Below are positions 30,713 through 58,734 of a DNA stretch of 64,000 bases, one piece after another. The stretch is taken from the NCBI GenBank assembly GCA_032718475.1, contig JAUCBJ010006659.1, positions 1 to 64,000 on the forward strand, given 5' to 3'. This DNA comes from Nemertoderma westbladi. Its lineage: Eukaryota > Animalia > Xenacoelomorpha. A program made the translations under genes and the position numbers. Each line of letters opens with the position of its first letter. Within the stretch, counting starts at the first letter, position 1. The notes under the pieces were generated by a model. The model had not been told where the DNA came from. It searched no databases and worked only from the letters and a program-made list of their open reading frames with translations.

Positions 30713-30720
30713 GGGAGCGG
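30713..30720 (+). other. B1 polypurine tract GGGAGCGG
   Basis: Immediately precedes LTR2; B2 has GGGAGTGG (59184-59191) and C has GGAGCGG. Confidence 0.75.
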
Positions 30721-38900: not shown

Positions 38901-41260
38901 TGTAAGGGTCCAGTAGTATACCGCTTACCAGATCCTAGTAACGATGTATCTTACTATGAGACTCTAGTAATGTATACGGGCTTGTACAGTATCTGACAAC
39001 AAATCCCAGTCCAGGATATCTAAACAAACAGATACAATACACAAACGACTACTGGCGAGGAACAGAGCCTAGTATCTATTCTATGTACGTGAGCGGGTCT
39101 AATGCCTACGTACTAGACAAAAGGATACCTGTCCTCTAACCGGTGAGGCAGATGTACAGTTACAGTAACAGACCAAACTCACGGGAAAACAATCCCCGCG
39201 CAGCGAATCCTAACTATCACTGACAGTCCTAAATACAGTAACTTGCCGCGGTGTGATTTATATGGTTTATATACGAACTAGGTGGTTAACAGACCTAGTG
39301 TAACAATGCTGATTACCCCTGTCTAAATCAGCCTAAAGTCGTGCCTAAATGTAACGATAACTGATCCCCCTGTACGAAATCAGTCTAAAGGGTCAGGCCT
39401 AAATGTAACAATACTGCTGGACAGAAATCAACAGTTTAATAACGAAAGTGAAATACTCCTTATTGCCGCAACTAAATCAGATCCTAATTTTACAAATACA
39501 GATAATTTCTACCTAAAATAATGTATAGTGCGCTATAGCTAGTAGAACTTTAAGGGCAATATGTTTTAGGGCGTGTGTGTGTGGGTGTGTTACAAATAAA
39601 ACAATTTCGTGTAATTCCTTTACTAGGTTTTAGTGATTTTCTGACTAAATGATACCGTGCGCTAGCTACTAAAATAAACTAGTCGCGTTTTGTAGAACTT
39701 TATACTCACGAATGACGTCAAAGCTCTCTCCTTCCTATCCACAACCCAATGGGCAACCACAGTGTTAGTAACTACACCCGTGATCGGCACTAATACCAGA
39801 TTCTGGTTGTAAGATAAGAATAGGGGTTAATCGCTACCGTACGTTAGCTGATCTGGTATACTAATTTAATTCTAGAACTTTGTTGCTGCGGTAGTTAGCA
39901 GCAATACCTATCAGTACGTGGCAAGGCGCGGTAGGATATTAATAAACCTCCCTAGGCCAAGCAGTGTGCCGGTAGCAGAAATGCTCCTTGCCTGATCAAA
40001 TAGCTAACTCCAGACAGGGGGGGGGGGTACTAATGTACGTTCTACAAAGCGAACCGGTACCAAACAGTCAGTGCTACGAATCACTAAATTATGGAACATA
40101 TGCTGTCTGTACCTAATATGTACTCGCGTACTGACAAATGGCAATAGTTCGCACCTGTAGGAAGTACAGGTTAACCCAGGGGTTCGTAGGACTGACAAAA
40201 GGGGGGGGTGTTTCTGTCTGAATATAATTATTTGATCCTAAATTTGCGGCGTCCAGTACGGCGTCACGCTTACCCTGATCTATAGGTCTTACGGCGGGCA
40301 AGGGCGTCGAACAAAGTCTTACCTTCTCACAAAGCGGGCGCTGCATGGCAAGTTGAGTATTTCGAAGGGGGCAAAGGGGGTGCGCGGTCGATCCAATGTG
40401 GGCGCTAGCGTGTTGTGGACATCTCTTCCCTGCGTTGCTTACGGCCTAACGGTCTAGGCTGCCATCTCCCTGATGTTTGGCTGTCCCAAAGTTGGACCAA
40501 AAGAAAACATGTTCAGGAATTTGCAGTATATTTACAGTTTTACAAAGGATTTATCAAATAAAGTTTCAACAAGAAACCAAAATAAACTAATAACAATTTA
40601 GGAATTTACAAGAGTAAGGTGGTGTTATTAGGGAGTTATAAGGTAGTTATAAGGGAGTTATAAGGTAGTTATAAGGTAGTTATAAGGTAGTTATAAGGGA
40701 GTTATAAGGTAGTTATAAGGTAGTTATAAGGTGATAACCGAAGGCAAACCGGCCTTTTTATACTAAATATTGCACATGGAAACTAAACAGAATTTTCCAC
40801 AGCTTCACATTTGAGCAATAAAGTGCTTCGTGCCCTATGATTGGCCCAGCTCATCGTTCAACGCAGTCCGGCCCTTACACTAATCTGGGACATGGAATCC
40901 TAACAGAATTTTCCACTGCCTCACATTTGAGCAATAAGATAATTTATGCCCTATGATTGGCCTGGCTCATCATTCGCTACGTTGTACGCTTCTCATTGGC
41001 CTACCAATTAGCACCAAACGAAAATAAATGGCCCCAAAATACAAATTTCCCGACTGGGATTCGAACTCGTAACCTATGTAATATAACCAACGCCTTAACC
41101 ATCTGACCACTACGCCACGAGAGTACCTAAGGGTTTTATGTGTACAAATATGAATAGGCATATTACATTACTGTAACTAAATCAAAATACGTCGGATTTT
41201 CGAAAGTTTTTACGTTAAAGTTAAACTACAAATGCTATCTTATAGTGAAATAATTCATCA
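38901..41260 (-). repeat. Element C 3' LTR (2360 bp)
   Basis: TGTAAGGGTCC...TAATTCATCA; PPT GGAGCGG (minus) at 41261-41267; contains a (GTTATAAGGTA)n array at ~40625-40735 and a duplicated ~115-bp CCAAT-containing block at 40770-40975. Confidence 0.95.
41048..41116 (-). promoter_or_regulatory. tRNA-derived Pol III internal promoter in C LTR (second copy at 58521-58590)
   Basis: A box TGGTCAGATGG (41099-41109) and B box GAGTTCGAATCC (41057-41068) at tRNA-like spacing; T4 run just downstream; no intact acceptor stem. Confidence 0.65.
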
Positions 41261-41880
41261 CCGCTCCATGAAAACAGTAAGTAAGACTGTTTTCACCAAT
41301 CGAAACATAAAGTATTTACAAACTACTTCTAAATCTACTGGTAGGGCCTAAAATATAAAATATAATCACTATCTAATTATTGCATACTTAATATTGCAGA
41401 TACGGCGTAAATACAATCGATCGTACATACAAATACAAATTTACGAATTAACTTTAGTGCCTAAAATACAAAAAAGGCTTTCGGTTATCAAGGTAAGCAA
41501 ATTAAACAAATCAGAACAAATAAATCAAAACAAATCAAACAAATAAATCAAACTCTTTCGATAAATCTTTATATATTGTAAATATACATAATAAACCTTC
41601 ACCAAATTAAATCAGTCCAAATATAATATAAACATAATGCGCTAATAACTTTCAATAATGTCCTCCTGACGATCTAATAGTTCGTCCTGCTGGTCTGGAT
41701 ATCTTCTCCTGAGCACCAATTGCTAACGGTAGGCTCGCAAGCCTTCCTTTCCATATCTCGCTCCTCCAAACCCAACATTCAAACATAATCCAAATATAAT
41801 GTCCAAATAAAATATCCAAATATAATATCCAAATAAATATCCAAATCGGTAGGCTCGCAAGCCTTCCTTCCACTCGCTTC

Positions 41881-44800
41881 CTATTCCTTCACTGAGCGGG
41901 CTCGTCCACGTCCTCTAGTGCGATTGGGGGGTGGTCGAGGTCGAACTGGGCTCGGACTTCGGCGTCGAGTCGTCGGTGGTTCCAAAACGCTAGGAAAGGG
42001 GACGACGGGAGTTTCGCACATCCGTCGTGCGCTTAATCCTCTAAATCCTCGTCCGATTCCAACTGTCGGCTTAACATCGGACCGAGTTTCTACAACGCTA
42101 GGAGGAAGTCGAAAAGGTAGGACCGTTCCGTCCGTTGACACCTCGCTCTCTGACGTCGTTTGAATCCTAATGGGTTCAGTCAAAGCGTATCCTGTCCCTC
42201 CGCGTGGTTCTCTAGCAAGGGAAACCGTGCCCCGAGTCATCCGGATTTGCGACTTCGATGTCGTCCTCTTGGCGACATTTACTACCTTCTTAATCTCTTG
42301 TCCGGCCTTCTGGGCTTTGAGTATACGAAATTGCTGATCATCCTGTGGGTGACGCGTCTTCTCCGCTAACGGCGTGGCCTTGAAGCCAGTCTCACGCAAA
42401 ACGTCGGTCTCGTCCAGAATGCACGAGGTTACGCGTTTGTGATAAAATGCGCTCCGGTATGCCCAAGCTATCGAATGCCAGGCTCCTCGATTCCGCTGTT
42501 CAACTCGCAGTTTATCGAATTCTCCGGCGGTAATCTTGTTCACCACAGTTTGAAAGTTCCAAGTATTCTTGTTGTCGGGGTGCACTTGTAAGAAATAGTC
42601 CCGCACAACTTTGAATCCACTGTCCAACGGCAATATATCCAATACCTCCAACAATTCATCGTACTGAGGCATAGCCGATACATATCCTTCCTTTGACATT
42701 ATGAGAGGGTTTACGGCCCAAAATCCCAAATGTGCTCTCATAGGGAAGCGGCGTCGCTGCGTCGATACATGCTCGTCTGCTAGGTCCTCCCAATGGTCGA
42801 ATAATTGTCGAACGATTTTGACTGACATGTGCTCATAGGGGACGTCTCTAAGTTGACATTCGGATGCCCTATGGCCCTTAATATTACAATAAGTACACTG
42901 CGCCACGAAACGCCAGCAAGTGTAGAAAGTGTGCGAACGTTGATCCCCGCACCAGTTGCATACTAAATCCGGTAGAGATATGTGCTTCGCTTCGCACTTC
43001 TTTGCGTGATGGCCAGTTGCTCCACATCTGCCACAAATAGTGTTGGCAGGATACCAAACTCGCTCATAGATGAGATCTCCGATGGGGCGAGCGCTACCAT
43101 CCACGTGATAATTCTCATCATCCGGGTCAGTCGGTATGTTCGTCTCCGTAGGTTGTACACAAACCATGGCATCGCTTTTCTCTAACTCGCGTATCTCAGT
43201 TCGCGTCTTCCTCGGAAGGTTCTCCTCTATTTCTATGAGTTGCCGTAACGGTTCGTCTATTAGCGCCAACTCGGTCGGATCCACATCGTCATGATGGGCG
43301 GTAGGCTCACGAGCCTTCCAGGATCCTTCCGGGCGTTCGAATTCCGCGTGGCGTTCCCCGTCATAGGGTACTAACGTTAACATCGACGGTCTGTCGACTA
43401 GACTTCCCGCGTGAGTGAGATAGACGTCCCTGAAAACGCTAAGTCCCGCTCGCGTGAAAACTTCGCAGTGCGCATCGGTGTTATAAAAGGGTTGGAGAAA
43501 TCGTCGGAATACATCGGTATGCGTCCTTCCTCCATCGTAAAAGGTATGTCCTTCGCCAAGACATAACGGGTGTCGCTTTAAGGTTCTGGATACTACGTCC
43601 GCGATGAAACAAACGTTAACCGAAGATTCTATCGCTAAATAGTATTGTAAGATTATCCGCGGAGGAGAAGTAATCGCCCAATACACGCAACCTCGCCACT
43701 TCAACTGTGACTCGAACTCGTTTACGCCGGGGGTATCTCCCTCTCCGTATACGTCCGTGTATTTGTTCCTCTTACTCTCCTTGTAATCCCAACTGAACAT
43801 TAGATATGAGATATAACCCGTTCCAGTTTTTAGCGTGTTATACTCCCTAAAGTATCCTTGCTCAATAGCCCAAAGCAACAATGGTCTATTATCCACGTAT
43901 GGCGTAGGCAATCGGTCCTCTTCCGTGGGCATCCCTGCAAAGTCGCTAATGAGGTCATCCCGTACACCGGATCCGATCTTGACGATGCTCTTATCCAACA
44001 CAACGTCTCGCACGGCCTTTGGCAACATCCTAGCTTCTATGCTACAAGCCAGGTCCATGGATTTAACTATCCGTTTTATCATCGCGTGTCTTTGCGTCGT
44101 TCCTTCCGGCATAGGCATCTTCCTATCACTCCTCTGTCGGCTGAAGACATGTAACACGCCATCTGGTGCTCTAATCTGTATAGTCTTTGAAGTGAGGCTT
44201 TGCTGATGGCTTCCTCCCTCATTATCGTAAAACATATATCCATTCTCTTTCAGAGATCGGCTAGTCACGTCCCAATCGTCGAGTAAATCGTCGGTAGGTT
44301 TCCAAATTCTCCCGATCGACTTTTCGTCATCGAAACTAATAGGTTTACCGGTCCAATTGGTCGCGATATCGGTGTCGGTCTCAAACGTCCCAACTCCGAT
44401 CCATAATCGAATCGTTTTCGTCAGATATCCTCGCAAGATACAAGGTGCGATATCCGTCCCCGCGCGATCCACTTCCTTAAAGTCCGTGATATGTGGAGGC
44501 ACGTTGCGTACGATTTTTTGAACTATTACTTTACACAACTCGGTTGATTCTAACACATCACCGAAGGTAACCGATGGGAGGAAATCCAGGTTCGAGATGA
44601 TCTCCGGGTGTTCAACTATAGGGATCTCGTAAGTTGTCTCCTTCCGGGTCGGTATACTAATAGGAAAACTAGTTGGTCTCGCAACCGGTACTATCGCTCT
44701 AGTAGAATGGGGCTGAGGTTCTCGCGTCATCTCGACATGAGGTATCTGTAGTCTCTGCGACAAACGCTGAGCAAAGGTGATACTATCGAAGAGCTCGGGT

Positions 44801-45636
44801 GTCATCTCCTTGGGTTCGGTTTGATCGTGGGATATCCAATAGAATGGTAGGCTCGCGAGCCTTCCGCCGAACTCCTCGATCTCGCCTTTCTCATACGCCT
44901 TGTACGCCCTGTAGAAGCTCAAAGCTTCCCGTTTCTCTTGTGTCGACTTATTAGACTCGTCCACTACCATGCTGTAGACGTCTGGTTCGACTAATTTAGG
45001 TTCGTAAATAACGATCTCACCCGCGTTCGGTCCACTCATTTTAAATGAATGATACGGATTTGTCAAAGGGTATCCGCCTTCTTGGTAACGTAGACTTTGG
45101 TGGTGTGAATATCGCGCTAATATCGGCTCGGGGTTCTCCGAGTTCAACCGCATAGGAATCGCGTTGTCTTGCTCGCGCATACACGCTCCACATTTATAAA
45201 ACAGTTTGTATACGGAAAACGCGTCCTTGGTCTCTGGATCCGCTCCTCGAGCGCGTCTATAAAGATGCATTCCTTCAAATTCGTCTCTAGCTGCAGGTAA
45301 GGGTTCGTTTACCGTCAAATATTGCAGCGTATGATACAATCGGCGTATTTCGGTGTCTGGATCCTCGCAAATGTCGCTAGCGTCGCATAACGCATCGTAG
45401 GGATATAACGCATTGTATTCCGCGCGTAATTCCTCCGTTCTTTTGTTGTATGCGTCCAACCGCTGTCGCGTAACATTTGGGTCCGCCTTGGATTTAGCGA
45501 GCTTGGCCGTACTCCTAGCCATACTCTCCACTCCAAACACACTAAAGTTTTTAGCTCCATAACGATTGAATGGCGCCTGGTGCTCTTGTTCTTGCGTAAA
45601 CCCTTGACGTAACTCTTTATACATCTTCTCCGCCAT
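41881..45636 (-). CDS. Element C ORF3 (1251 aa): DEDDy/WRN-like 3'-5' exonuclease domain + three CCHC-type zinc knuckles + basic C-terminus
   Basis: ISFDDE (ExoI), TIQIR, LPKAVRDVVLDKSIVKIGSGVRDDL (ExoII), W...LQYYLAIE (ExoIII-like); CGRCGATGHHAKKC, CNWCGDQRSHTFYTC, CTYCNIKGHRASEC; uninterrupted ORF. Confidence 0.8.
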   Translation of the reverse strand: MAEKMYKELRQGFTQEQEHQAPFNRYGAKNFSVFGVESMARSTAKLAKSKADPNVTRQRLDAYNKRTEELRAEYNALYPYDALCDASDICEDPDTEIRRLYHTLQYLTVNEPLPAARDEFEGMHLYRRARGADPETKDAFSVYKLFYKCGACMREQDNAIPMRLNSENPEPILARYSHHQSLRYQEGGYPLTNPYHSFKMSGPNAGEIVIYEPKLVEPDVYSMVVDESNKSTQEKREALSFYRAYKAYEKGEIEEFGGRLASLPFYWISHDQTEPKEMTPELFDSITFAQRLSQRLQIPHVEMTREPQPHSTRAIVPVARPTSFPISIPTRKETTYEIPIVEHPEIISNLDFLPSVTFGDVLESTELCKVIVQKIVRNVPPHITDFKEVDRAGTDIAPCILRGYLTKTIRLWIGVGTFETDTDIATNWTGKPISFDDEKSIGRIWKPTDDLLDDWDVTSRSLKENGYMFYDNEGGSHQQSLTSKTIQIRAPDGVLHVFSRQRSDRKMPMPEGTTQRHAMIKRIVKSMDLACSIEARMLPKAVRDVVLDKSIVKIGSGVRDDLISDFAGMPTEEDRLPTPYVDNRPLLLWAIEQGYFREYNTLKTGTGYISYLMFSWDYKESKRNKYTDVYGEGDTPGVNEFESQLKWRGCVYWAITSPPRIILQYYLAIESSVNVCFIADVVSRTLKRHPLCLGEGHTFYDGGRTHTDVFRRFLQPFYNTDAHCEVFTRAGLSVFRDVYLTHAGSLVDRPSMLTLVPYDGERHAEFERPEGSWKAREPTAHHDDVDPTELALIDEPLRQLIEIEENLPRKTRTEIRELEKSDAMVCVQPTETNIPTDPDDENYHVDGSARPIGDLIYERVWYPANTICGRCGATGHHAKKCEAKHISLPDLVCNWCGDQRSHTFYTCWRFVAQCTYCNIKGHRASECQLRDVPYEHMSVKIVRQLFDHWEDLADEHVSTQRRRFPMRAHLGFWAVNPLIMSKEGYVSAMPQYDELLEVLDILPLDSGFKVVRDYFLQVHPDNKNTWNFQTVVNKITAGEFDKLRVEQRNRGAWHSIAWAYRSAFYHKRVTSCILDETDVLRETGFKATPLAEKTRHPQDDQQFRILKAQKAGQEIKKVVNVAKRTTSKSQIRMTRGTVSLAREPRGGTGYALTEPIRIQTTSESEVSTDGTVLPFRLPPSVVETRSDVKPTVGIGRGFRGLSARRMCETPVVPFPSVLEPPTTRRRSPSPVRPRPPPNRTRGRGRARSVKE

Positions 45637-46368
45637 CGTATACGAATATATGCGGTTACATATCGTTACGTTTCTACTAGATGAAGCACAAAATAGAGGT
45701 TAGATGTGAGGTGACTTAGAGTTTGTCGGCTTTTGGCTCAACTCTGCTCTAAACCCCAACCCATTTTGCCTAATGATTTCGGGTTCGCGTGATTTCGCAC
45801 TGGCTCCTAATCCAAAAATGTGCCGATAAAAAACGAATTCCGGGTAAACTAGCCGCGAGTCTAAAATACTCACCTTTTAATTTCCCAAACTACGTTTCCC
45901 AAGAAAAATAATGCAGTCGAGAATTAATTGGTCTAAATAATAGTAGACACGACTACGTAGAACAAGGCCGATTTTCTTTTTCCAAAAAAATTTATCGGTA
46001 GGCTCGCAAGCCTTCCATCCGCTCTTGTCCTCCCCAATTTTAATTTTTATCTAGCTGTATTCTAGAATTTGCTTTCACTGGAGAATCGTTTTTCTTAAAT
46101 TTAAATCCAAATAAATGGATTTGTCTAATAATTTTTGAAAAATGTCTCACTTGTGGGTTCCAAGTGGAATTCCATTCCTACTGTACACACAATCCCGCTC
46201 CTATGTGATACATAAGGGTACTACCCTCCATGTTCACGTATAAAGACAATGGAATTCCACCGCTGTCTCTATCTACAGTGAAGAGGATTACAAATGCACG
46301 TACAGTAATACAAATACAAATAACTAAAATACAGTAGGTCTATGTGGCGGCCGACAAAGGTCCCACAT

Positions 46369-49300
46369 CTATTTACTAATATTGGGTGGAGATTTGTAGT
46401 CTCCCGTCTCGTTTCTAGTCTCCTCAAGGAGTACGAGACGTTGTACAGGCCTATCTACGGTACGTCCGTCGATAGTCCGTACAGTAACTGTCCTCACTAC
46501 ACCAGATGTAGGGTGCGTGGTCAAAATGACTCCAGTCAGCCAAAACCGTCTTTTCAGATTGGCTTCAGCCAATAAAACATGGTCACCACGTCTTAAACTT
46601 CGGGTATTTAGATACCAAGAGGTTCTGGTCGAAATAGAGGGCAAATAATATTTCTGCCATATTTCCCAGAATTTATTTGCAAGCAATTGAGTGATTTTCC
46701 AAGCCTTGTTGCCGTATCCGTCACTATCAACGGGTACCGAAATGGGCAACAATGTCGTCGGCGCCTGCATAAGCAGGTGCGCTGGTGTCAAGGCAAACTG
46801 TACGTCGTTATTGTCTGGGATCAAAGCGATCGGTCTGGTATTTAAGATTGCTTCGATTTCTATTAGTAACGTCGTCAGTTGGTCGTCTGTCAAGATGTGT
46901 TGCGTCGGTACGACTTTAGCCATAGCTGTCTTTATTGAGCCAATCAGCCTTTCCCAAATGCCGCCTCTCCACGGACTGTCTGGAGTATTGAAAAACCAAA
47001 CAATACGGTGAGGACGTAGTTCCTCGGAATTCTGGTTTTGGTCCAATTTTCTCAAAGCTCTGGTTATCTCGTTCCGTGCACCCACAAAGTTTGTCCCTTG
47101 GTCGCAGTATATGGATTTGACCAATCCACGTCTAGCGATAAATCGCCGTAAGGCTAGGATAAAGGCATTGGTGGTCAAGTCTGTCACTCGCTCTATATGG
47201 ACAGCTCTGCTGGCCATGCAAGTGAAGATCAATCCCCAACTTTTTACCTGTACCCTTCCGCGTTTCGCGATTATGGGTCCAAAACAGTCTATCCCTGTCT
47301 CAGTGAAAGGGGGTCTAAACGCCTGTAATCTAGCTAATGGTAGTTCACTCATTTCTTGGTGTCCTATCCTCGCGTGCACCTTCTTACAAATAATACAGTT
47401 CCGTGTTACCGAACTCAGTGCCTTACTAGGTCTAATCAGTACAAACCTCGAACGTAAGTGTGATAGACAGTGGTGTCTACCTACGTGTTTGAGTTGTACG
47501 TGTGCGTCCAGTATCATAGCGCGCTGTAATTCATGGTGTTGCGGTATGATGATAGGATACCTAAAGTCAAGTGCAAAGTCGATGTTTTGGAGTCTGGACT
47601 TGTGACAAAGTAAGCCCCGGTAAATAATCGGACTCCAACTCAAAATCGGTGAAGACTTAATCTGTTTAACTTGTTTGATCGCTGTGAATTCGCGTGCGAA
47701 ATATCGCAATTGATAATGTCTAATGATATCAACTTCACAGTGGCCAATTTCCTTTAAGGTAAGTCTTCTAGGAAAGTCGCGTTTGCCTCTGGCATATTGT
47801 CTCAATCGTTTGAGCCATGCTAACTTGCGGCATGCGTCAGTCCATGATCTAGTTAGGTTCACTATCCTGTCAACGTAAGTGTTAGTGACGTCATCGGGTA
47901 AGGTGTAGTCGTAGTGTGGATACTTGTCTGGACTTGGTAGGCCCACGGGCCTTCCGGTAGGTTTGTCTGAGTCCCCAAGTACGTCAATCTCTATGGTCTT
48001 ACCTTTGCCGTCCGCACCTAATGTGTCGACTGGCAGTAATGGTTTCAACTCTACAGTGTCAGTGTGTTCCTGTGAGCCTGTAAGCTTCCTAACCTTAGTC
48101 ACACGTTTACCTGTAGGTAAGTCAAGTACCTTCTTCGAGCGGAGTGTAATCCCTGTGGCCACACCTCTGTCGTCCAAAGAAGTCAAATTCGGTAAATCTC
48201 TAAAAGTCCGCTCCAATGGGTCTTCTAATGGAGTGTCTAGTAGACAGTCTGGTGAAGCGTCTGGTGAACAGTCTGGTGAGACGTCTGGTGAGACATAGCG
48301 CGGAACATCCGGCGAAATGTCCTGTCGTCGGTCCCAAAGTCTGTCTAGCGTAACTTCTGTCAGAAAGTCTGGTTCAAAGTCTGGTCTAAAGTCTGGTGGA
48401 CAGTCTGTCGAGATGTCTGGTGGAAAGTCTGGTGAGACGTCCGGTAGACATTCTGTCGAGAGTTCCATCAAACAATCTGGCGAATAATCCGGAGAACAAT
48501 CTGGTGTCGCTTCTGGTGAATAGTCTGGCGAGTAATCTGGTGAACGATCCGGCGAAACGTCTGGTGAAATCTCCCACGGAACATCCGGCGAAGGATTCGT
48601 ACAAGCGTCTGGTCGAGTGTCTGGCGAGACGTCTGGCGTAATGTCAGGTCTGGCGTCCAGGTCATCAGATTTCGTCCGTCCTTTTTTCCTCTTGACCTTG
48701 GCGTTGGCTTTCGCTTTAGACTTGACAACCTTGTCGAGTTTTATCTCGGCACCCTCTGGTATGGTGTTGGTTGTCGCGTCGAATAACGGTGGCCATTCGT
48801 CTGATGGTCGCTGTAGGAAATCGGGTCCTCTAAACCAAAAGGATTTATTGTCCGGTTTACAAAAGTCAAGTGGTTGCATCCCCCGTGACGCGATGTCAGC
48901 TGGGTTCAGCTTCCCTGGACAGTGACGCCAATCTTGTTTGAGCGACCGGTCTAATATTTCAGCCCGTCTGTTGGCTACGAAAGTCTTGAACTCGAATGTT
49001 TCGTTGTTTATGTACCAAAGTACCAACGTCGCATCCGTCCAATATGTGACCTTCAAGTTAGCCTCCAGCTCGCGTTGAACTAGACTGACAATATCGGTGG
49101 ATATCGTGCCGGCTTGCAGCTCCCCACGAGGTACAGTCATATACTTCAATGGCATTGTTCTAGCCCTTGAAGTAACGAGAGATACATCGTAGCTGTCCGA
49201 TGTCACTTGTCGTCTAAGGTATAAAGTAACCCCCAATCCATCCTTGCTAGCGTCACTAAAGCTGTGAAGCTCTAAATCGGCAGGAAAGGTGGTTTGCAAA

Positions 49301-50637
49301 GGAAAGTATACCCTTGGTATGGTATAGTCTTGTAGGAACGTCAGTTGGGCTTCCCAGTCCCTCCATCGCTCAGCTAACTTTTCTGGGATGGGATTGTCCC
49401 ATTCCAGTCCGGCTTGCCAAATGCTGCGGAGTATGATCCTAGCATGTAGGATCACTGGACTAATGAAACACAATGGGTCATACAATCGACTCATGGTCGA
49501 TAAGCAAGTCCTCTTAGTGAGAGGTCTAGTCTGGTCGTTGGACCTTACACGTACCCTAAAATTGTCGGTGTTAGGGTCCCAACTAAGTCCTAATACTTTG
49601 GTCGTCGGCAGAGGTTCTAGGTCTAAGTCCAAGTCACCTCCACTGCGATCCATCGGGTCAAATGAGTTCACCAGTTCGGGTTCGTTGGAAGCGAACTTCG
49701 TCAGGTGAAATCCGCCCTCAGCGAGACAATCCTGGAGTTGGTGTGCTACGGTTGTAGCGCGCTCCAAGGTGTCACAACTCTTGAGGCCGTCATCCACGTA
49801 GAAGTCTCGTTCCACGGTCCGAACTACTTCAAGGTCAAATTGGTCTCGTCTGTCCAATGCTGTCTGCTTCAATGCGTACATGGTGCAGTTGGGGCTGTCC
49901 CTGGCTCCGAATACTCTTACCTGCATTTGGTAAGTTTCTGGCGGAAGTTGTAAGTTTCCGTCCGGATACCAAAGAAACCTTAAACTGTCCCTGTCCCGCT
50001 CCAAAGCCTTAACCTGGTGAAACATGGCCTCTACGTCACAGGTGAAAGCCACTTTGCGTTGTCTAAAACGCATTAGGACTCCCATGAGGTAATTATTCAT
50101 ATTCGGCCCGTCCATCAGTTCGCTGTTCATAGACATCCCTTGGTAAAGCGCAGCGCAGTCGTTGACTACACGCACCTTGCCAGGTTTGTCCGGGTGTCGA
50201 ACAAAATGATGTGGCAGGTAATATGTCTGGTCTATGGTTACCTCGGGATTTAACATCCTAATGGCGTATCCCTTTTGGAGATACGTCTGAAGTTGTGCAT
50301 TGTATTGCATATGGGCCATCTCGTCTCGCAACAATCGCTGCCTTATTGATTTGAGTCGCCTCAAAGCAAGCGGGTAATTGTTAACGAGTTTAGGTTGTCC
50401 ATTGCGCCACAACATACCAACCTCATAGTGGCCATTCGCGGTCTGGCGAATGGTATCTCTCATAATATTTAATGACCGTTTTTCCTGTTCTGACATAGCG
50501 GTCTCGTAACTACCGGGTTCTGCTGAGTCCTGTTCCAACCATTGTATGGTCCGTTCAGTCAGCAGTCGGTCAAGCGCTGCTTGCACTGCGCCATGGTCCT
50601 CGTCCACGTCTTCGTCCGCTGCGGTGGCTAGTGTCAA
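46369..50637 (-). CDS. pol: Element C RT-RNase H-integrase (1422 aa), with a PDxS repeat linker
   Basis: YYLPHH, CDVEAMFHQV, YVDD, LHSFSDAS, GIDCFGP, YCDQGTNF, GGIWERL. Confidence 0.95.
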   Translation of the reverse strand: MTLATAADEDVDEDHGAVQAALDRLLTERTIQWLEQDSAEPGSYETAMSEQEKRSLNIMRDTIRQTANGHYEVGMLWRNGQPKLVNNYPLALRRLKSIRQRLLRDEMAHMQYNAQLQTYLQKGYAIRMLNPEVTIDQTYYLPHHFVRHPDKPGKVRVVNDCAALYQGMSMNSELMDGPNMNNYLMGVLMRFRQRKVAFTCDVEAMFHQVKALERDRDSLRFLWYPDGNLQLPPETYQMQVRVFGARDSPNCTMYALKQTALDRRDQFDLEVVRTVERDFYVDDGLKSCDTLERATTVAHQLQDCLAEGGFHLTKFASNEPELVNSFDPMDRSGGDLDLDLEPLPTTKVLGLSWDPNTDNFRVRVRSNDQTRPLTKRTCLSTMSRLYDPLCFISPVILHARIILRSIWQAGLEWDNPIPEKLAERWRDWEAQLTFLQDYTIPRVYFPLQTTFPADLELHSFSDASKDGLGVTLYLRRQVTSDSYDVSLVTSRARTMPLKYMTVPRGELQAGTISTDIVSLVQRELEANLKVTYWTDATLVLWYINNETFEFKTFVANRRAEILDRSLKQDWRHCPGKLNPADIASRGMQPLDFCKPDNKSFWFRGPDFLQRPSDEWPPLFDATTNTIPEGAEIKLDKVVKSKAKANAKVKRKKGRTKSDDLDARPDITPDVSPDTRPDACTNPSPDVPWEISPDVSPDRSPDYSPDYSPEATPDCSPDYSPDCLMELSTECLPDVSPDFPPDISTDCPPDFRPDFEPDFLTEVTLDRLWDRRQDISPDVPRYVSPDVSPDCSPDASPDCLLDTPLEDPLERTFRDLPNLTSLDDRGVATGITLRSKKVLDLPTGKRVTKVRKLTGSQEHTDTVELKPLLPVDTLGADGKGKTIEIDVLGDSDKPTGRPVGLPSPDKYPHYDYTLPDDVTNTYVDRIVNLTRSWTDACRKLAWLKRLRQYARGKRDFPRRLTLKEIGHCEVDIIRHYQLRYFAREFTAIKQVKQIKSSPILSWSPIIYRGLLCHKSRLQNIDFALDFRYPIIIPQHHELQRAMILDAHVQLKHVGRHHCLSHLRSRFVLIRPSKALSSVTRNCIICKKVHARIGHQEMSELPLARLQAFRPPFTETGIDCFGPIIAKRGRVQVKSWGLIFTCMASRAVHIERVTDLTTNAFILALRRFIARRGLVKSIYCDQGTNFVGARNEITRALRKLDQNQNSEELRPHRIVWFFNTPDSPWRGGIWERLIGSIKTAMAKVVPTQHILTDDQLTTLLIEIEAILNTRPIALIPDNNDVQFALTPAHLLMQAPTTLLPISVPVDSDGYGNKAWKITQLLANKFWEIWQKYYLPSISTRTSWYLNTRSLRRGDHVLLAEANLKRRFWLTGVILTTHPTSGVVRTVTVRTIDGRTVDRPVQRLVLLEETRNETGDYKSPPNISK

Positions 50638-53600
50638 TGCGTCTGGTAGGCTCGCAAGCCTTCCGGTGTCACTAACGGCGTCGAATTGTCGTGCGGCGGT
50701 TTGACAACTTCTTGATCTATCGGTAGGCTCGCAAGCCTTCCAAGATCAACGACCGGTGTCGAAGCCTGGTGGGTGGGGTCAATGACCTTCGGATTTTTCG
50801 GTAGGCTCGCAAGCCTTCCAAAATCCTCGTTCATCGAGTCATCCACGGCAACAACCCTTTGGTCTTCAGTAGTCAATACAACCTGGTCTACTGCAAGTAG
50901 TTGTAAGTCAGAGGTCCGTATGGTCGTGTCCAGATCGGTTACGTCAGTATCGGTGGCGTCTGCGTTAGTGACGCAAGTCTGTCGTAGTGCCGTCCGTACA
51001 ATTGGACCACAGGAGTGTGAAGGAGAATTATCTATCGTGTTAGTCAATAAACTACACGTACTCAAAACGTCGTCCTCCTGGTCACTTACCTCTAGTGAAC
51101 GTATTGGTGCTCTAGTATACCAACCTATGGGAGTTCTACATGCGTAGGGGTTGCCGCTGTAATAACAGATGGGCGTGTCTCCCATACCTGATGTAAGTTA
51201 AACTGGTCTGTCCCAATTAACATCGCAATGGAACGATAATTAACAGGACATTCCGGTATTCCAAGGTGTCAGAAATACTTACGATCTTCCGGTGATTGCT
51301 CTGGCACAGGGCCAAGCAAGTTACTAAAGTCCTTCGTAGCTGCAAAGGTCAAATTTCTTACCGGAAGTAATGAGCGCTCCTCCTTGCTGTGTTCCGCTTT
51401 GGAAAGAAGAGTGTCTAAAGTTAGTTTTACTCTCGTCACAGGTATCGCTCTCTTACCATGCATGCTGCTTACAGTATACTGAGCAGTCTTACCTTGACTC
51501 ATGTCCGTAACTACGTCGGCTACTTGTTCGTCGACATAACTATGCGATGACGCAGAGTCTAGGATGGCGTATATACGCTTGCTCCCTCGGGTTCCGGTAA
51601 TCTTTATAGGAATCACGCTAAACCCTTTCAGTTGGTTCTGTGTGAGGAGCGTTATCGATGGCTGTTCCTCACCTGCATGCACGTAAAAGGTGTCGTCTTC
51701 CTCCTCGTCCTCGTCCGATGATCCTGACTGATCCATACAGTCGGTATAAAAGGTACGGATCTCGCGCGGCGCACGCTCCTTATAAAGCGCGTCGCATCTA
51801 GCCGCTTTATCTGGATGCTCTCGTCGAAAGCGTCTGGTCGGAGTATGACTGGTTGTGTGAAGCAACGTGTCATGGTTACGTCCACACAGAGAACATGTAT
51901 CATCGCTCGGGCAATCCTTCCGGACGTGTCCTGGCTTCATACATCTCCAACAGGAATCTAGAGATCGGATTTGGAGTCTCCTCTCCTCGATCCCTAACTC
52001 TTTAAAAGCGCGACATCCACGTAGTTTATGTCCGCCTTGGTTTCTGCCGTTCCGCTTGCAGTATGAGCATCCCACAAAGCCCGCCGGCAACTGTTGTCGT
52101 GGCTGCGTGGTGCCGATAGGCGTCAGAACTTTAGAAGTCTCAGTAGGTGTGGCGTAAGTAATGGCTTTCGCGTTCGTCGGAAATGGTTTAGTCCGATTCG
52201 GCGCAGAAACAGGTATCCCTTCCGCCGCGATATGGTGATCGGTATAGTTCGATCGAGTCTCGATCACGGCCTCCCGTGAAATCAGTTGATAGACATCGGT
52301 GAGTTTTAATAACCCTCCGGCCTCGTCGCGCTGGTACTCGATGCGTCGCCATTCTCTTCGTAGTCGATGGTGAAGTCGACCAATTATTCGAATGAGAACC
52401 ATCGGTGCGTTAGCGTACTCGAGTTGTCCAATGGACCGTAAAGTCCCTATAGCGTTCTTTATTTCGTCCGCGAGTCGTAAAAGGTCGATCGGTCTCGAAA
52501 TGTTGCCTCCTCTGCAGGGGTCTTCGATAATGGATTTAGCCATGGCGACATTACCGCCGTAAATTGAATACAAACGGTCGTATGCCAACTCAAAGGCATC
52601 GGGAACACCAATAAAGGTTTCCGCTAATCGTTTCAGCTCACCAGACAGGACTTGGAGCAAGTAATTAAACTTCTCCGTCGAGGTGAAAGCACACTTAGCG
52701 ATCTGGGACTCTACGTAGTCTACCAGTGTGCGCCAGTGTTTCGCGTTGCCAGAGAACTTCGGCGGTTGCTGTGCCGGTAATCCGTGTCTAGCCGCGAATT
52801 TCGCAATCTCGCTAACCAAATCCAACTGTCCGCATCCCTGTTCGGCGGCGTCGTCCAGTCGCTCCCTTCCGCGCGTTGTTCGTCGGTAGGAATTATTAAC
52901 GGGATCTTCTTCTCGATGTGTCGGAGTCCGTCTAGTCTCCTGTTCTCTCCTCGGTGGTCGATGTTGTCTAGGTTGTTCCAACTCCACGCTGGTTCGTGAT
53001 CGATCCGACGGTTGCGCTTCGAGTCGCTCTTCTATCTGAGCTAGTCGGTCCGCTACAGGTCGCATTATTTCGGCGAGTCTGTTGGTGCTGATCGCTTCCG
53101 CTGGTTGCAACATGGGTTTCTGTTGGGGTGTTTCTCGTGGAGGATTGTCGATATAGGGGTTCGTCGATCGTTCCTCTCGTTTATAATCTTCCGCCGCTCC
53201 AGTACGGAATATTTCCCGTTCCGTCGACTCCGAGTCACTAGATGAGTCGCTGTTGTCCGGATAAGGTGGCTGGCGGGTTCGTGTCCGGCGTATTATTCTT
53301 GGTCTCGTCCGTTGTGGTCCGGAATCTACGGCTCTCCGTTGTTCGGTAGGCTCGCAAGCCTTCCACGAAGTCGTAGGTCTCGCTATACGTTGTCCGATCC
53401 CGTGGGTACTATCCACATCCATCCTCCTCCGTAGTTCGGTAGGCTCGCAAGCCTTCCACGAAGTCGTAGGTTGCGTCGAACATTGTGTCAACGGTCGAGT
53501 GAAATAGTCGGGTTTCGTAGTCGGTCTGTAAATAACTGGATTTGCACAGCACGTCACAGGTTTAACTTGTAATGGTTTACTCACCTGTTTAATGGTCATA

Positions 53601-55258
53601 AATGCAGGTTCCTCTCTTCCTACAAGTAGACTACGACTTACTGTAGGTGGACTAGTTACGTTACCTGCTAAAATTGGCGATGAAGTCGCCCTAGGTTGCG
53701 GTATTTCTGTCACAACAAACCTGTTGCCTTGCGTCGAACGCACAGGCGTTATTTCCTTAGGTTTCGTAACGAAGACCGGTTTCATCGGAGTCGTGGGTTT
53801 GAGCATAGGAATAACTTGGGGAAAACGTTTACAGTAATCCTCGACGAACTCCTCTCCTCGATCTATCGCTCCCACACTTCCTTCCTCGATCCGCTTCTGT
53901 ATTCCGCGATATCGAGCTTCCATACGATCCAGGGCAGACAAGTCGTGTCCAGTTCGCGATCTTATAGATCTATCTCTCGCGTCGAGTTCGAGGTCCGCTT
54001 GCGCGTTCGCTGTCTCGCGCGATCTACGATTCAATTCGAACTGTAGTTGCATCTCCCTTTCACGTCGATCCGCTACTTGTTGTTGTGCCGCTAACTCCGC
54101 TTCCTGTATAGCTAAACGTGCGTTTATTTGTCGCGCCTCCAACTTAGCGCGAGCGTCGGATGCTGCTTTCTTCCGTGCTAATTCGTCGGCTGCCGTCTGT
54201 CGTGCTAACTCGTCCGCTGCTGCTGCCGCGGCCGCTTCTTGCGCTAAGTTTTCCTCTAGTCTGCGCATTTCCGAAGCTTCGAATTCGGCTTGCGCCTTGA
54301 GTTGCGCAATTCTTGCCTCGTCCTCTCTATGTTGTTTCTCTCCCTCGATGGCGATCTGTGCCATCTGGTGTTGCGCTTCTTCCTCGGCGACTTGTTGTCG
54401 GAGTGCAACCTCCTGTTGTTGTCGAGTAATTCCAGACGCTGTTCTACTAACGTCGCCAACGTCGCCAACGTCGCTCCGTATGCTAACGAACGATCTATCC
54501 AGTGGTGGATGTTGGTAGGCTCGCGAGCCTTCCGTAGTGAGACCTTCCGTCGTCCCTCGCGGTTCGACTTCCGGTTCGTCGATCGGTACGCCGCATCTAC
54601 GAAGAAAATTGGTCAGCGTTTCCAACCTTCCGTCCAGGCAGTAGAGTTCTTCTTCCTCTTCGGGTTGTAACAACGCGTCCGAAACTGACTCACCTAGCAG
54701 TTGGTCAAACTGCTCCTGTTGAGCCAATCTTATTACTGACTTAAACTGGATAATGCTTTCTCTCGCACTTACTAATTTATCTACTATCTTTACCTGAGTA
54801 AAGTTGTCGCCACGCAACTCTGCAAGTTCGTGCAAACCTTTAAGTTTATCTACGGAGGCATGTATCCTACTTTCTATTCTTACCTGTAAGGTGTAGAACT
54901 CGTATCTCGACATCGGGGCGGTTAACTCGCGTAAAACGCGAAAACCTTCTCCGAGGTTCCGAGTAATCTGGGCCATGTGTCCTCCTATACTTCTAATAAC
55001 GTTCTCCTGGCTTCCAGTCGAACTTACCATGTCCGGTTCCCGTGATCTAGTCTGCGGGACGGTAAGGAAATCTTCGATTCTGCCGTCGCCACGCGTTGCG
55101 GCTTCCGGTATTTCCGTTCGGGGTACCGGCGACGCAAGCGGTGTGACATCGGTGGAATCTCGGGTTCTCCTTCTTGGTTCGTCTATTGTCGATCTGTCCG
55201 GGTCGCACGAGTCATAGTCGGTAGGTGGGTATCTCGTCGAATGGGGTGTGTCACTCAT
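50634..55258 (-). pseudogene. gag: Element C gag + protease (1329-aa ORF 51269-55258, TGA at 51269, then frameshifts near 51180 and 50670)
   Basis: PKFSGNAKHW DUF1759-like region; knuckles CSYC..H..C, CWRCMKPGHVRKDC, CSLCGRNHDTLLH; ILDSAS; MLIGTD follows the stop in frame. Confidence 0.9.
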
Positions 55259-56210
55259 GTCTTATTATATACGTCAAGTACGGGTAATAAAATGTCAAAG
55301 TGTCTGAATGTTGAAGTGTCAAACTTACCTTGGTATATGTAGTACATATATACCCTAACCGGTACAAATAAATCAACAAGTCAGAATGTCGAAATGTCAA
55401 AATGTCGAAATGTACAAATGTCAAACTTACCTTGATATATATATATATCATATATATACCCTAACCGGTACAAATAAAACTAACAAGGTATATAATAAAA
55501 TAAGTAGTAATCTAGCCTACCGGCTAAATTTGTACGAATAAATGAGATAACGGTATACGTTAACAAAATATAGATCAACAAGTACAAACAATAGGCCAAA
55601 CAGCAACGTCTAACGGGAAAATAAGTACCAACAACACTACTAATAGACAGTGAAACCAACAAATTTTGAGTACTACTGTGCTTTCTTAAGTTTGAACGAC
55701 GCGAGTCGTAAAACTTATGTTCCTTTGATCTTCCAGTCGTACAAATTCCCAAATACAAACCGGACGTGGGTCTTTCCGTTTTTCGGCGGCGCGGACGATT
55801 TTATTGTCTCCCAAACTTTGCGAAAAGCGGTCTAATCCTCGAAGCGGTCCAGAAATGAGTCCTTGAGTCCTGAAAAGGTCGAAGGTGAGAGTTTTACTTC
55901 TACGCTTACGAAAATCTTCCTAGGTACCGATACAAATTGGTCTTTAAACCCTATGTACCTTTTCAAGTACCGAAAAGTAACACCGCACACACACGGCGTA
56001 AAACAAAGTGCTACAAACTAACTGTTAGCTAGTCAAATATTAAATACGAAAGTACTAGCTACCCTAAAAGCCTACTGAAGCAGGGGACGTTCTAAATTAC
56101 TAAAATTACTAACCTTAAATTTTAAATATCTCCTACTTTCAATAGCTAACAATATTTATCTATATCTCACTTTAAATGCGCACGCACTTTCAGTTAAGAT
56201 ATTTAATAAA

Positions 56211-56373
56211 TACTTCCTACTGTAAGGGTAGGAATATTTTACACTACGATAGAAGTACTATACACTAATTTCAGAATTTGTATAATATACTTCCTACTGT
56301 AAGGTAGGAATATTTTACACTACGATAGAAGTACTATACACTAATTTCAGAATTTGTATAATATACTTCCTAC
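56211..56373 (-). repeat. 76-77-bp tandem repeat reiterating the C LTR end + PBS; non-tRNA PBS GTAGGAAGTA at 56364-56373
   Basis: TACTTCCTAC-TGTAAGG occurs at 56211, 56288 and 56364. Confidence 0.85.
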
Positions 56374-58734
56374 TGTAAGGGTCCAGTAGTATACCGCTTA
56401 CCAGATCCTAGTAACGATGTATCTTACTATGAGACTCTAGTAATGTATACGGGCTTGTACAGTATCTGACAACAAATCCCAGTCCAGGATATCTAAACAA
56501 ACAGATACAATACACAAACGACTACTGGCGAGGAACAGAGCCTAGTATCTATTCTATGTACGTGAGCGGGTCTAATGCCTACGTACTAGACAAAAGGATA
56601 CCTGTCCTCTAACCGGTGAGGCAGATGTACAGTTACAGTAACAGACCAAACTCACGGGAAAACAATCCCCGCGCAGCGAATCCTAACTATCACTGACAGT
56701 CCTAAATACAGTAACTTGCCGCAGTGTGATTTATATGGTTTATATACGAACTAGGTGGTTAACAGACCTAGTGTAACAATGCTGATTACCCCTGTCTAAA
56801 TCAGCCTAAAGTCGTGCCTAAATGTAACGATAACTGATCCCCCTGTACGAAATCAGTCTAAAGGGTCAGGCCTAAATGTAACAATACTGCTGGACAGAAA
56901 TCAACAGTTTAATAACGAAAGTGAAATACTCCTTATTGCCGCAACTAAATCAGATCCTAATTTTACAAATACAGATAATTTCTACCTAAAATAATGTATA
57001 GTGCGCTATAGCTAGTAGAACTTTAAGGGCAATATGTTTTAGGGCGTGTGTGTGTGGGTGTGTTACAAATAAAACAATTTCGTGTAATTCCTTTACTAGG
57101 TTTTAGTGATTTTCTGACTAAATGATACCGTGCGCTAGCTACTAAAATAAACTAGTCGCGTTTTGTAGAACTTTATACTCACGAATGACGTCAAAGCTCT
57201 CTCCTTCCTATCCACAACCCAATGGGCAACCACAGTGTTAGTAACTACACCCGTGATCGGCACTAATACCAGATTCTGGTTGTAAGATAAGAATAGGGGT
57301 TAATCGCTACCGTACGTTAGCTGATCTGGTATACTAATTTAATTCTAGAACTTTGTTGCTGCGGTAGTTAGCAGCAATACCTATCAGTACGTGGCAAGGC
57401 GCGGTAGGATATTAATAAACCTCCCTAGGCCAAGCAGTGTGCCGGTAGCAGAAATGCTCCTTGCCTGATCAAATAGCTAACTCCAGACAGGGGGGGGGGG
57501 GTACTAATGTACGTTCTACAAAGCGAACCGGTACCAAACAGTCAGTGCTACGAATCACTAAATTATGGAACATATGCTGTCTGTACCTAATATGTACTCG
57601 CGTACTGACGAATGGCAATAGTTCGCACCTGTAGGAAGTACAGGTTAACCCAGGGGTTCGTAGGACTGACAAAAGGGGGCTGTGTTTCTGTCTGAATATA
57701 ATTATTTGATCCTAAATTTGCGGCGTCCAGTACGGCGTCACGCTTACCCTGATCTATAGGTCTTACGGCGGGCAAGGGCGTCGAACAAAGTCTTACCTTC
57801 TCACAAAGCGGGCGCTGCATGGCAAGTTGAGTATTTCGAAGGGGGCAAAGGGGGTGCGCGGTCGATCCAATGTGGGCGCTAGCGTGTTGTGGACATCTCT
57901 TCCCTGCGTTGCTTACGGCCTAACGGTCTAGGCTGCCATCTCCCTGATGTTTGGCTGTCCCAAAGTTGGACCAAAAGAAAACATGTTCAGGAATTTGCAG
58001 TATATTTACAGTTTTACAAAGGATTTATCAAATAAAGTTTCAACAAGAAACCAAAATAAACTAATAACAATTTAGGAATTTACAAGAGTAAGGTGGTGTT
58101 ATTAGGGAGTTATAAGGTAGTTATAAGGGAGTTATAAGGTAGTTATAAGGTAGTTATAAGGTAGTTATAAGGGAGTTATAAGGTAGTTATAAGGTAGTTA
58201 TAAGGTGATAACCGAAGGCAAACCGGCCTTTTTATACTAAATATTGCACATGGAAACTAAACAGAATTTTCCACAGCTTCACATTTGAGCAATAAAGTGC
58301 TTCGTGCCCTATGATTGGCCCAGCTCATCGTTCAACGCAGTCCGGCCCTTACACTAATCTGGGACATGGAATCCTAACAGAATTTTCCACTGCCTCACAT
58401 TTGAGCAATAAGATAATTTATGCCCTATGATTGGCCTGGCTCATCATTCGCTACGTTGTACGCTTCTCATTGGCCTACCAATTAGCACCAAACGAAAATA
58501 AATGGCCCCAAAATACAAATTTCCCGACTGGGATTCGAACTCGTAACCTATGTAATGTAACCAACGCCTTAACCATCTGACCACTACGCCACGAGAGTAC
58601 CTAAGGGTTTTATGTGTACAAATATGAATAGGCATATTACATTACTGTAACTCAATCAAAATACGTCGGATTTTCGAAAGTTTTTACGTTAAAGTTAAAC
58701 TACAAATGCTATCTTATAGTGAAATAATTCATCA
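56374..58734 (-). repeat. Element C 5' LTR (2361 bp)
   Basis: Only a handful of differences from 38901-41260 seen by eye. Confidence 0.95.

Follow-up and report, generated by a model that had tools for sequence, protein, structure and literature searches.

Our analyses have identified, within an unusually long Bel/Pao LTR retrotransposon (element C), 12 co-oriented copies of a near-invariant short inverted repeat that is likely, according to structure prediction, to fold as a hairpin in the RNA of the element. We infer four things about these copies, viz. that they are under selection, that the sense RNA is the working strand, that a protein binds them, and which protein that is. The reading that they are selected RNA sites for a protein encoded by the element has, on the sequence features described below, a somewhat better than even chance of being correct. 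The positions of the copies and of other features of the element are summarized in Table 1.

Element C and its dispersed motif

Element C shares with the family Belpaoviridae its paired LTRs with a target duplication and, as identified by Pfam (PF03564, PF05380, PF17921, and PF18701), the order Gag then PR-RT-RH-IN with Bel/Pao-type sequence. A database comparison gave 1365 relatives at E<=1e-50 (7982 scored), the closest being Bel/Pao polyproteins that are 38-44% identical. The element differs from the ICTV profile of the family (genome 4.2-10 kb, LTR 0.2-1.2 kb; PMC8742986) in its size (19.8 kb, with LTRs of 2.36 kb), yet it remains under the maximum of 22.8 kb (median 7.4 kb) described for de novo Bel/Pao surveys (PMC3118150). 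It differs also in having an ORF3 that does not appear env-like and in apparently lacking a canonical tRNA primer site: by sequence inspection, no such 18-nt site was seen after the 5' LTR, where the sequence has no TGG start and consists of a 76-nt repeat. ARAGORN found no tRNA. The gag-pol of this copy is a broken frame. Local repeats are abundant in the element.

The first-pass annotation of the window (the whole 64-kb stretch of DNA that was analysed) had listed 12 motif copies, and approximate-match and descriptor scans of the window place all of them exactly where it had reported them, on one strand. Eleven of the 12 sites are recovered at up to 3 mismatches, where 100 dinucleotide shuffles gave 0 matches, and the twelfth (47936) is recovered at 4 mismatches. 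A descriptor in which the stem was left free (GG, A, any 5-bp stem, 4-nt loop, stem, A, CC) matches exactly these 12 copies in the 64 kb, 12 on the minus (sense) strand and 0 on the plus strand. The reported absence of the motif from the LTRs and from elements A and B is borne out by the same scan (0 matches there), and altogether the 49 kb of the window outside the internal region of C hold 0 copies on either strand. Because 41728/41848, 50645/50722/50800, and 53345/53438 form local clusters, to which 7 of the 12 copies belong, the copies represent 8 loci rather than 12. Copy number is also variable, since one contig is without one of the 3' UTR copies (25 letters on the short side).

Table 1. 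Coordinates, in the window, of element C, its open frames and the motif copies.
Feature	Position	Strand	Details
Element C	38901..58734	-	Bel/Pao LTR retrotransposon, 19,834 bp; sits within a B-family copy
5' LTR	56374..58734	-	2361 bp, TG...CA; without motif copy
3' LTR	38901..41260	-	99.7% identity with 5' LTR
Target-site duplication TCAAC (5 bp)	58735..58739	-	Other copy 38896-38900
gag + protease frame	51269..55261	-	DUF1759, CCHC; terminates at stop
Open frame, protease-RT linker	50634..51197	-	Flanked by two frame breaks
pol frame	46369..50745	-	RT, RNase H (PF05380), long repeat-rich linker, integrase (PF17921, PF18701)
ORF3	41881..45699	-	Unbroken frame of 1272 codons (stop to stop)
Possible DEDDy-type 3'-5' exonuclease-like domain	43555..44292	-	ORF3 aa 470-715; lead only
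Three CCHC-type zinc knuckles, ORF3	42856..43035	-	PF00098 E 1.7e-4 on excised part, and sequence
Hairpin copy (predicted fold)	54514..54533	-	N-terminal region of gag; loop CGCG; flank pair C-A
Hairpin copy (predicted fold)	53438..53457	-	gag; UGCG; U-G; clustered with 53345
Hairpin copy (predicted fold)	53345..53364	-	gag; UGCG; U-G; clustered with 53438
Hairpin copy (predicted fold)	50800..50819	-	Protease-RT linker; UGCG; U-G; predicted stem extension
Hairpin copy (predicted fold)	50722..50741	-	Protease-RT linker; UGCG; U-G; predicted stem extension
Hairpin copy (predicted fold)	50645..50664	-	Protease-RT linker; UGCG; C-A
Hairpin copy (predicted fold)	47936..47955	-	RNase H-integrase linker; closing pair C-G; CGUG; C-A
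Hairpin copy (predicted fold)	45997..46016	-	pol-ORF3 spacer; UGCG; U-G
Hairpin copy (predicted fold)	44846..44865	-	ORF3 aa 279, ahead of exonuclease-like part; CGCG; C-A
Hairpin copy (predicted fold)	43300..43319	-	ORF3 aa 794, past exonuclease-like part; CGUG; U-G
Hairpin copy (predicted fold)	41848..41867	-	3' UTR; UGCG; A-G
Hairpin copy (predicted fold)	41728..41747	-	3' UTR; UGCG; A-G

Nine of the 12 copies are coding and 3 are non-coding, and the coding copies are read in all three frames, as had been reported (phase 0 in five, phase 1 in three, and phase 2 in one). The frame independence drawn from the translations thus stands, while the peptide WKACEPT assigned to 50722 does not, as it belongs to a frame that overlaps; read in the open frame 50634-51197, 50722 gives GRLASLP, and so does 50800. 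Searches for the motif elsewhere were negative within their scope. An exact scan of viral contigs gave 0 matches, and the motif peptides were found 0 times in 120 Bel/Pao homologues of 38-44% identity (220,808 residues, one substitution allowed). Four single exact matches in metagenome contigs were taken as chance, since none of these contigs had a second copy or resembled, by tblastn, any of four proteins of the element. No precedent for such a motif array was found in the literature searched.

Conservation, placement and predicted fold

The motif is near-invariant at 16 of its 20 positions, and the packaging signals dispersed in viral genomes are usually less strictly invariant than this, a point that weighs against a packaging role. 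Its departures from the core among the 12 copies are all confined to the loop or preserve pairing; they are those that had been reported, viz. the loops UGCG (8 copies), CGCG (2) and CGUG (2), and a U-A to C-G change at 47936. The loop at 43300 is CGUG in this copy of the element and CGCG in nearly all other copies compared. Sense-strand mismatch counts in C run from 0 to 4 for the 12 sites, the next value being 7, and no decayed relics at 5-6 mismatches are present on that strand of the element. In all five cluster pairs the core is identical at 20 of 20 positions while the 28-nt flanks are 46-67% alike, against baselines of 43% for random pairs and 45% for between-locus pairs. The flanks of different loci are unrelated.

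The motif extends by one base on either side, a Y before and an R after (from 20 to 22 nt). Leaving aside the two 3' UTR copies, this flank pair is U-G in six of the other 10 and C-A in four, and never U-A or C-G, a post hoc observation for which the Fisher test gives P 0.005, or 0.029 when clusters are collapsed to give 8 units. CpG decay as the origin of this pattern was rejected, as C is not CpG-depleted (o/e 1.23). The loci lie in linkers, the gag-pol copies avoiding the blocks covered by the 120 homologues and by the pol of B (chance ~0.07). The gaps between loci are 0.5-2.8 kb, and in a post hoc comparison with 200,000 random placements the loci are more evenly spaced than random (P 0.006 for CV and 0.014 for the largest gap).

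The predicted fold consists of a Y.R pair, two G-C pairs, an A.A mismatch, a 5-bp stem and a YGYG tetraloop whose positions 2 and 4 are invariant among the 12 copies. The loop belongs to the Y-N-(A/C/U)-G (YNMG/YNUG) class in 12 of 12 copies on the sense strand as against 4 of 12 on the antisense strand; this class is described for domain d of the enterovirus oriL (PMC5633025). Folding energy gives a mixed picture of the strand. Isolated hairpins fold equally on both (-9.1 kcal/mol each at two sites), and with 30-nt flanks 10 of the 12 copies are predicted to fold on either strand. In a 320-nt context, folding with P>0.5 is predicted at the single-copy loci in 5 of 5 cases on the sense strand versus 2 of 5 on the antisense strand, and in the clusters the local sense hairpin is not predicted for 6 of the 7 copies. 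The flanks lengthen the stem little (mean z -0.64), with a clear predicted extension only at 50722 and 50800. Covariation amounts to a single double-sided change and is not above shuffles (342 of 500 as high). At 47949, one diverged contig carries a stem-base change whose result on the sense strand is G-U; on the antisense strand it is a mismatch. No Rfam family reaches its gathering threshold, and two chance-level matches (E 2.8 and 4.8) both lie off the motif. Readings as a bacterial REP/RAYT system (GTAG and a hairpin on the antisense strand) and as a histone stem-loop, hammerhead ribozyme or splice signal were dropped, their matching features being absent.

The earlier suggestion of multivalent protein-binding RNA sites is partly upheld: specificity for the element in the window, frame independence, retention of the core relative to its flanks, and the sense-favouring loop class all fit such sites, whereas covariation provides only the one change. 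The copies would fold into small hairpins in the RNA of C and be retained by selection, an element-encoded protein would bind them at 1-3 kb intervals, and the bound protein would mark, coat and package the ~17-kb genomic RNA.

ORF3 and the candidate binding partner

The contrast between C and B, a single pair of elements only ~42% identical in pol, had been taken as a possible link between the motif and a C-specific exonuclease-like domain. Both the motif and a middle insert of ~715 aa in ORF3 are indeed present in C and missing in B, with whose ORF3 the N-terminal and CCHC parts are common; it is the exonuclease label that gains no support, every alignment test of that identity having been negative. 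No match of the insert to PF01612 was found in Pfam, PDB, or searches of 5.8 billion and 1.84 billion sequences, and no relatives of it or of ORF3 were detected in the sequence databases searched. Against RNase D-type profiles (23 and 33 bacterial domains) it scored no better than shuffles, although only RNase D-type and polymerase domains of bacteria went into these profiles, which have little bearing on eukaryotic WRN/EXD-type domains. AlphaFold without an alignment gave pLDDT values of 33.2 and 31.6, too low for a usable fold. The exonuclease-like assignment is a lead only, drawn from a language-model match and from residue spacing judged by eye. In the ESM Atlas the insert reaches 0.91 to PF01612 clusters, with 24 of 30 matches in the PF01612 set; the match has 132-160 shared features (typically 170), and shuffles reach 0.9 in 4-10 of 100. 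By eye, DEDDy residues may be placed at D492-x-E494, D582, and Y687-x3-E691 (the final D replaced by E), while a block test did not select this triple, and 480 of 500 shuffles scored equally high.

ORF3, with its C-specific insert and CCHC knuckles, is a tentative candidate for the binding partner, and the Gag nucleocapsid is placed slightly below it as another doubtful one; ORF3 is put ahead because it is made apart from Gag-Pol and would need sites of this kind if it is to work in cis or get into the particle. A bolder and, in our judgement, unlikely extension is that C is an LTR element with its own RNA operator system, in which the gain of an exonuclease-like module by ORF3, and of a matching hairpin in almost every linker by the genome, would allow loading in cis along the whole RNA, the loaded protein either shielding it against small-RNA silencing or travelling in the particle and assisting there in the copying of an oversized genome. 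B1 has an internal region of 13.7 kb and no dispersed 10-mer, and therefore length alone does not demand such sites.

Alternative readings and known systems

The structural and strand evidence would be identical if a host protein were the reader and the hairpins served export, stability, protection from early termination, or germline transport of a long unspliced transcript. Egl-BicD, as described in PMC13186709, requires two stem-loops for efficient transport and binds a signal of the I-factor retrotransposon. However, in the Egl signals described there, a 3' bulge accompanies two helices, each 6 bp or longer, whereas the core of C has 5 bp and 2-3 bp around a symmetric A.A mismatch, so that the earlier suggestion of localisation elements finds no fit to the Egl type. 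The slight extension of the stem by its flanks, the lack of an Rfam family at gathering score, and the absence of the motif from B in the same host also count against a host reader, which we consider improbable. A role in reverse transcription, where the motif (in the RNA template or single-stranded cDNA) would recur as a site at which copying of a very long genome pauses or is re-primed, or at which the plus strand starts internally, would agree with the even spacing of the loci, the purine-rich 5' arm, the apparent lack of a canonical tRNA primer site in C, and the naming of RT processivity as a size limit for giant retrotransposons (PMC6431247). Such a role is highly improbable given that the motif is unlike C's own purine tract before the 3' LTR, that none of the 15 joints listed, out of 216, runs from locus to locus, and that B, which is likewise without a canonical primer site, has no motif.

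The motif might instead be a double-stranded DNA site of two near-identical half-sites, read by an element protein (VANC-like) or a host factor and keeping the element active. It is a near-palindrome of fixed sequence, and folding energy favours neither strand. CCHC knuckles typically bind single strands, and their presence in ORF3 argues against duplex DNA as the target, as do the invariant loop positions, the two-sided closing-pair change and the co-varying flank bases, all unneeded in a half-site spacer, and the lack of CpG depletion in C. The targets of VANC, too, share one orientation, are specific to a family and have multiplied by tandem duplication (PMC5735166), and co-orientation therefore does not exclude DNA; however, as described there, they are motifs of 8-9 bp in dense non-coding arrays, whereas here a 20-nt motif is found at 8 loci at kb spacing, 9 of the 12 copies lying in coding sequence and the LTRs having none. 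We regard a DNA site as quite improbable, and the same holds for a functionless motif, i.e. a structured sequence spread by template switching of reverse transcriptase and by local duplication, surviving where proteins tolerate it and amplified with the family. The clustering of 7 of the 12 copies, the location of every copy in tolerant linkers, the richness of C in local repeats, the unrelated flanks between loci (as short insertions would give), and the contig lacking a 3' UTR copy are what neutral spread would leave; the absence of decayed relics, the identity of the core though cluster flanks are near background, the restriction of core departures to the loop or to pairing-preserving changes, and the 0 inverted copies among 8 loci are not.

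How Bel/Pao elements replicate is poorly understood (PMC8742986), and what exonuclease-like ORF3s do in retroelements is described as an open question (PMC5408684). A near-invariant 22-nt RNA that is repeated in C and missing from a neighbouring element provides a ready probe for a binding partner. If an element protein binds it, a giant LTR element would have a defined cis signal, one that would bear on how such elements overcome the limits set by packaging, by the stability of the transcript and by RT processivity (named in PMC6431247). If nothing binds, it would still be an unusual micro-repeat spread through coding linkers.

Favouring selected RNA sites for an element-encoded protein, we may compare the array with several known systems. 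Domain d of the enterovirus oriL (PMC5633025) likewise carries a YNMG/YNUG tetraloop on a stem and is bound by a virus-encoded protein; it occurs only once, at the 5' end, in an RNA virus, and no sequence kinship is claimed. The Egl-BicD signals (TLS, ILS, and GLS) are also stem-loops read with the aid of an exonuclease-homology domain, two being required for efficient transport, but they differ in helix geometry, resemble one another little in sequence and have a host protein as their reader (PMC13186709). The bdelloid Juno/Vesta LTR elements and Terminons similarly have a non-env ORF3 with an RNase D-like (DEDDy) domain (PMC5408684), the main text of that account using neither the word "hairpin" nor "stem-loop"; these elements belong to other LTR lineages, and in C the candidate domain is joined to CCHC knuckles. 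With the VANC/VANDAL anti-silencing system of Arabidopsis the array shares element-specific, co-oriented copies spread by duplication and an accessory ORF that probably encodes the reader (PMC5735166). VANC, in contrast, reads 8-9 bp of duplex DNA in the non-coding tandem arrays of a DNA transposon, while the motif of C is a 20-22-nt inverted repeat, mostly in the coding linkers of a retrotransposon; were the operator reading true, an animal retroelement would have its own equivalent of VANC/VANDAL, acting at the level of RNA. The dispersed packaging signals of ssRNA viruses (MS2, HBV, and enteroviruses) bind coat protein with affinities that differ from signal to signal, whereas the copies in C are nearly invariant, confined to linkers and carried by an LTR element; what the two have in common is that many short stem-loops with a shared feature (in C, a predicted fold with a shared motif) are distributed across coding genomic RNA (PMC6281560).

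Element C and its neighborhood

The hairpin motif is carried by element C, a Bel/Pao LTR retrotransposon in which Pfam identifies the domain set of this group in the expected order and whose closest relatives, among 7982 candidates scored, are 38–44% identical. At 19.8 kb, C is about twice the ICTV size range for Bel/Pao (PMC8742986), and its length is close to the maximum of a de novo survey (PMC3118150). In the present copy gag-pol is broken into three open frames and ORF3, the third ORF, is intact. Immediately downstream of the C 5' LTR no TGG-type primer site was found, nor was a TGG after the LTR of the related family B; non-tRNA or self-priming is possible. The tRNA-like stretch in the C LTRs received no call by ARAGORN or Rfam.

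The stretch was found, whole or in part, in six public sequencing runs from four studies; one of these runs may be the source of the window itself. Matching contigs in two runs number 20,027 and 9,259 (2,191 and 1,744 at <90% identity), counts that we read as pointing to a multi-copy, diverged family. The contigs of run X5 that are close to C may represent a close relative, a mixed sample or transfer.

Features of the window and of element C
Feature	Position	Strand	Remarks
Satellite-like array, large	3150–8000		64–73-nt units; 2084-nt higher-order repeat
Further Bel/Pao remains	~11800–15900		
Nested Bel/Pao cluster	15792–60372		three LTR segments and two internal regions of family B, C within the second of these regions
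B-family ORF3	29036–30643; 58735–59100		CCHC knuckles; frame-broken; homologous to ends of C ORF3
Element C	38901–58734	minus	2361-bp LTRs, 99.7% identity; TCAAC duplication
gag-pol breaks in C	near 51270; ~51150–51200, 50640–50740		stop; frame breaks
76-nt unit, 2.3 copies	56206–56382		right after 5' LTR of C, including final LTR bases; predicted fold
tRNA-like or SINE-like stretch	58520–58600; 41050–41125	minus	both C LTRs; by eye
GGAGCGG, purine-rich	41261–41268 (C); 30712–30718 (B)		immediately upstream of 3' LTR, in both elements; replaces a long polypurine tract
Expansion of ~280 aa in C	48212–48592		between RNase H and integrase; in-frame 12-nt repeats coding SPD-x units
X5 contigs	41500–51400		~98–99% identical to C despite different organism label
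Contig divergence	47955–47962		several X1 and X3 contigs pass beside the 47936 hairpin into related but different sequence

Copies of the predicted hairpin motif

A pattern search for the 20-nt motif recovered 11 of 12 sites at ≤3 mismatches, with no matches in 100 shuffles; the twelfth, 47936 (copies are named by start coordinate), has 4. On the sense strand of C the mismatches number 0 (8 sites), 1 (2), 2 (1) and 4 (1), and the next site has 7. A descriptor with a free 5-bp stem returns exactly these 12 minus-strand sites from the whole 64 kb, which bears out the 12 co-oriented copies of the first-pass annotation; they represent 8 loci, since three groups of copies are local clusters. Its claim that all three frames are used likewise holds, as the nine coding copies split 5, 3 and 1 by phase (50722 and 50800 being read in the open frame 50634–51197) and three are non-coding. 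The motif is real, specific to its element within the window and probably functional.

The gag-pol copies sit where just 0–13 of 121 homologues align, copy 50800, within the protease-RT linker, falling in the gap that separates the two tested proteins; the chance of four loci all avoiding the core (49% of gag-pol) is ~0.07. Two copies in ORF3 lie one on each side of its exonuclease-like part. From LTR to LTR, the gaps around the loci are 1850, 1122, 2670, 2786, 1939, 1151, 1546, 1512 and 538 nt, a spacing evener than random (P 0.006 and 0.014; post hoc, and partly a consequence of linker positions).

Within-cluster pairs share 20/20 core bases in 5/5 cases, their flanks being 46–67% alike vs. 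43% in random pairs; either the core alone was kept in old duplicates or the core alone was copied. Sixteen of 20 motif columns are invariant. The one base preceding and the one following the motif change jointly (U-G in 6 copies, C-A in 4, A-G in both 3' UTR copies), with post hoc Fisher P of 0.005 for 10 copies and 0.029 for 8 collapsed units. U-G and C-A are isosteric wobbles, and because CpG depletion is absent in C, deamination is an unlikely source of this pattern. Speaking against constraint, standard covariation is limited to a single U-A to C-G change, no more than shuffles give. Among listed differences of ≥1% in runs X1, X3 and X5, which leave out contig ends, none falls in the 47936 motif; the sole X4 contig there, which differs at 9 places over 131 nt, carries one of these inside the motif, giving a sense G-U and an antisense mismatch. 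The loop CGUG at 43300 is private to the window copy, CGCG occupying nearly all depth of three runs, and one 3' UTR copy is absent from one X3 contig (short side 25 letters). The contig divergence beside 47936 suggests a subfamily with an indel adjoining that motif.

ORF3 and the contrast with family B

The pol of B is ~42% identical to that of C, and its broken ORF3 matches C ORF3 at aa 110–175 and 911–1048, the interval being 65 nt in B vs. ~735 codons in C. In B1, a B copy, no 10-mer was found at three or more distant places. Hence the motif and the ORF3 insert are both C-specific, as annotated earlier, but the contrast is a single one, and the B1 internal region measures 13.7 kb itself. 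The B-family ORF3, which had no Pfam match, represents a non-env ORF3 lineage in the host.

No relatives of the insert were found in any search, Pfam and PDB gave no match, profiles of 23 and 33 bacterial domains scored nothing above shuffles, and both predicted folds were unusable. In the ESM Atlas, ORF3 aa 470–715 lie near PF01612 clusters (0.91, 24/30 matches), a level that 4–10 of 100 shuffled proteins reach, and residues D492-x-E494, D582 and Y687-x3-E691 are, by eye, in the expected order. We consider an exonuclease fold of the insert somewhat more likely than not.

Possible readers of the array and known systems

We rate as likeliest, at little better than even odds, an array of small sense-strand RNA hairpins, which would be kept by selection and read by an element-encoded protein that would coat and package the ~17-kb RNA. 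ORF3 is slightly favored as this reader because its middle is C-specific, it has CCHC knuckles and it is separate from Gag-Pol, so that cis action would need an RNA handle; Gag nucleocapsid is a close second. Reading by a host RNA-binding protein appears unlikely, and the motif departs from the Egl signal geometry (PMC13186709).

It is improbable that the motif is a duplex-DNA site, although its co-orientation does not speak against this, since VANC targets are co-oriented as well (PMC5735166). Neutral spread of the motif would seem a poor prospect, and a role as reverse-transcription signal very improbable.

Folding energy does not distinguish the sense from the antisense hairpin, and with 30-nt flanks 10/12 copies are predicted to fold on either strand, with little stem extension by the flanks overall (mean z −0.64). 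Loop class leans to the sense strand, Y-N-(A/C/U)-G fitting 12/12 loops in sense and 4/12 in antisense. With 320 nt of context, folding is predicted for single-copy loci in 5/5 cases in sense and 2/5 in antisense; the local sense hairpin is lost in 6/7 clustered copies, which perhaps pair with each other.

The motif has no Rfam match, and searches of the open-access literature turned up no description of a near-invariant hairpin that recurs along the coding linkers of an LTR retrotransposon. The sense loops fit the YNMG/YNUG class, as does enterovirus oriL domain d (PMC5633025). Dispersed packaging signals (PMC6281560) and DEDDy ORF3s in LTR elements (PMC5408684; PMC6431247) are already known, as are element-specific motif arrays with an accessory protein as reader.
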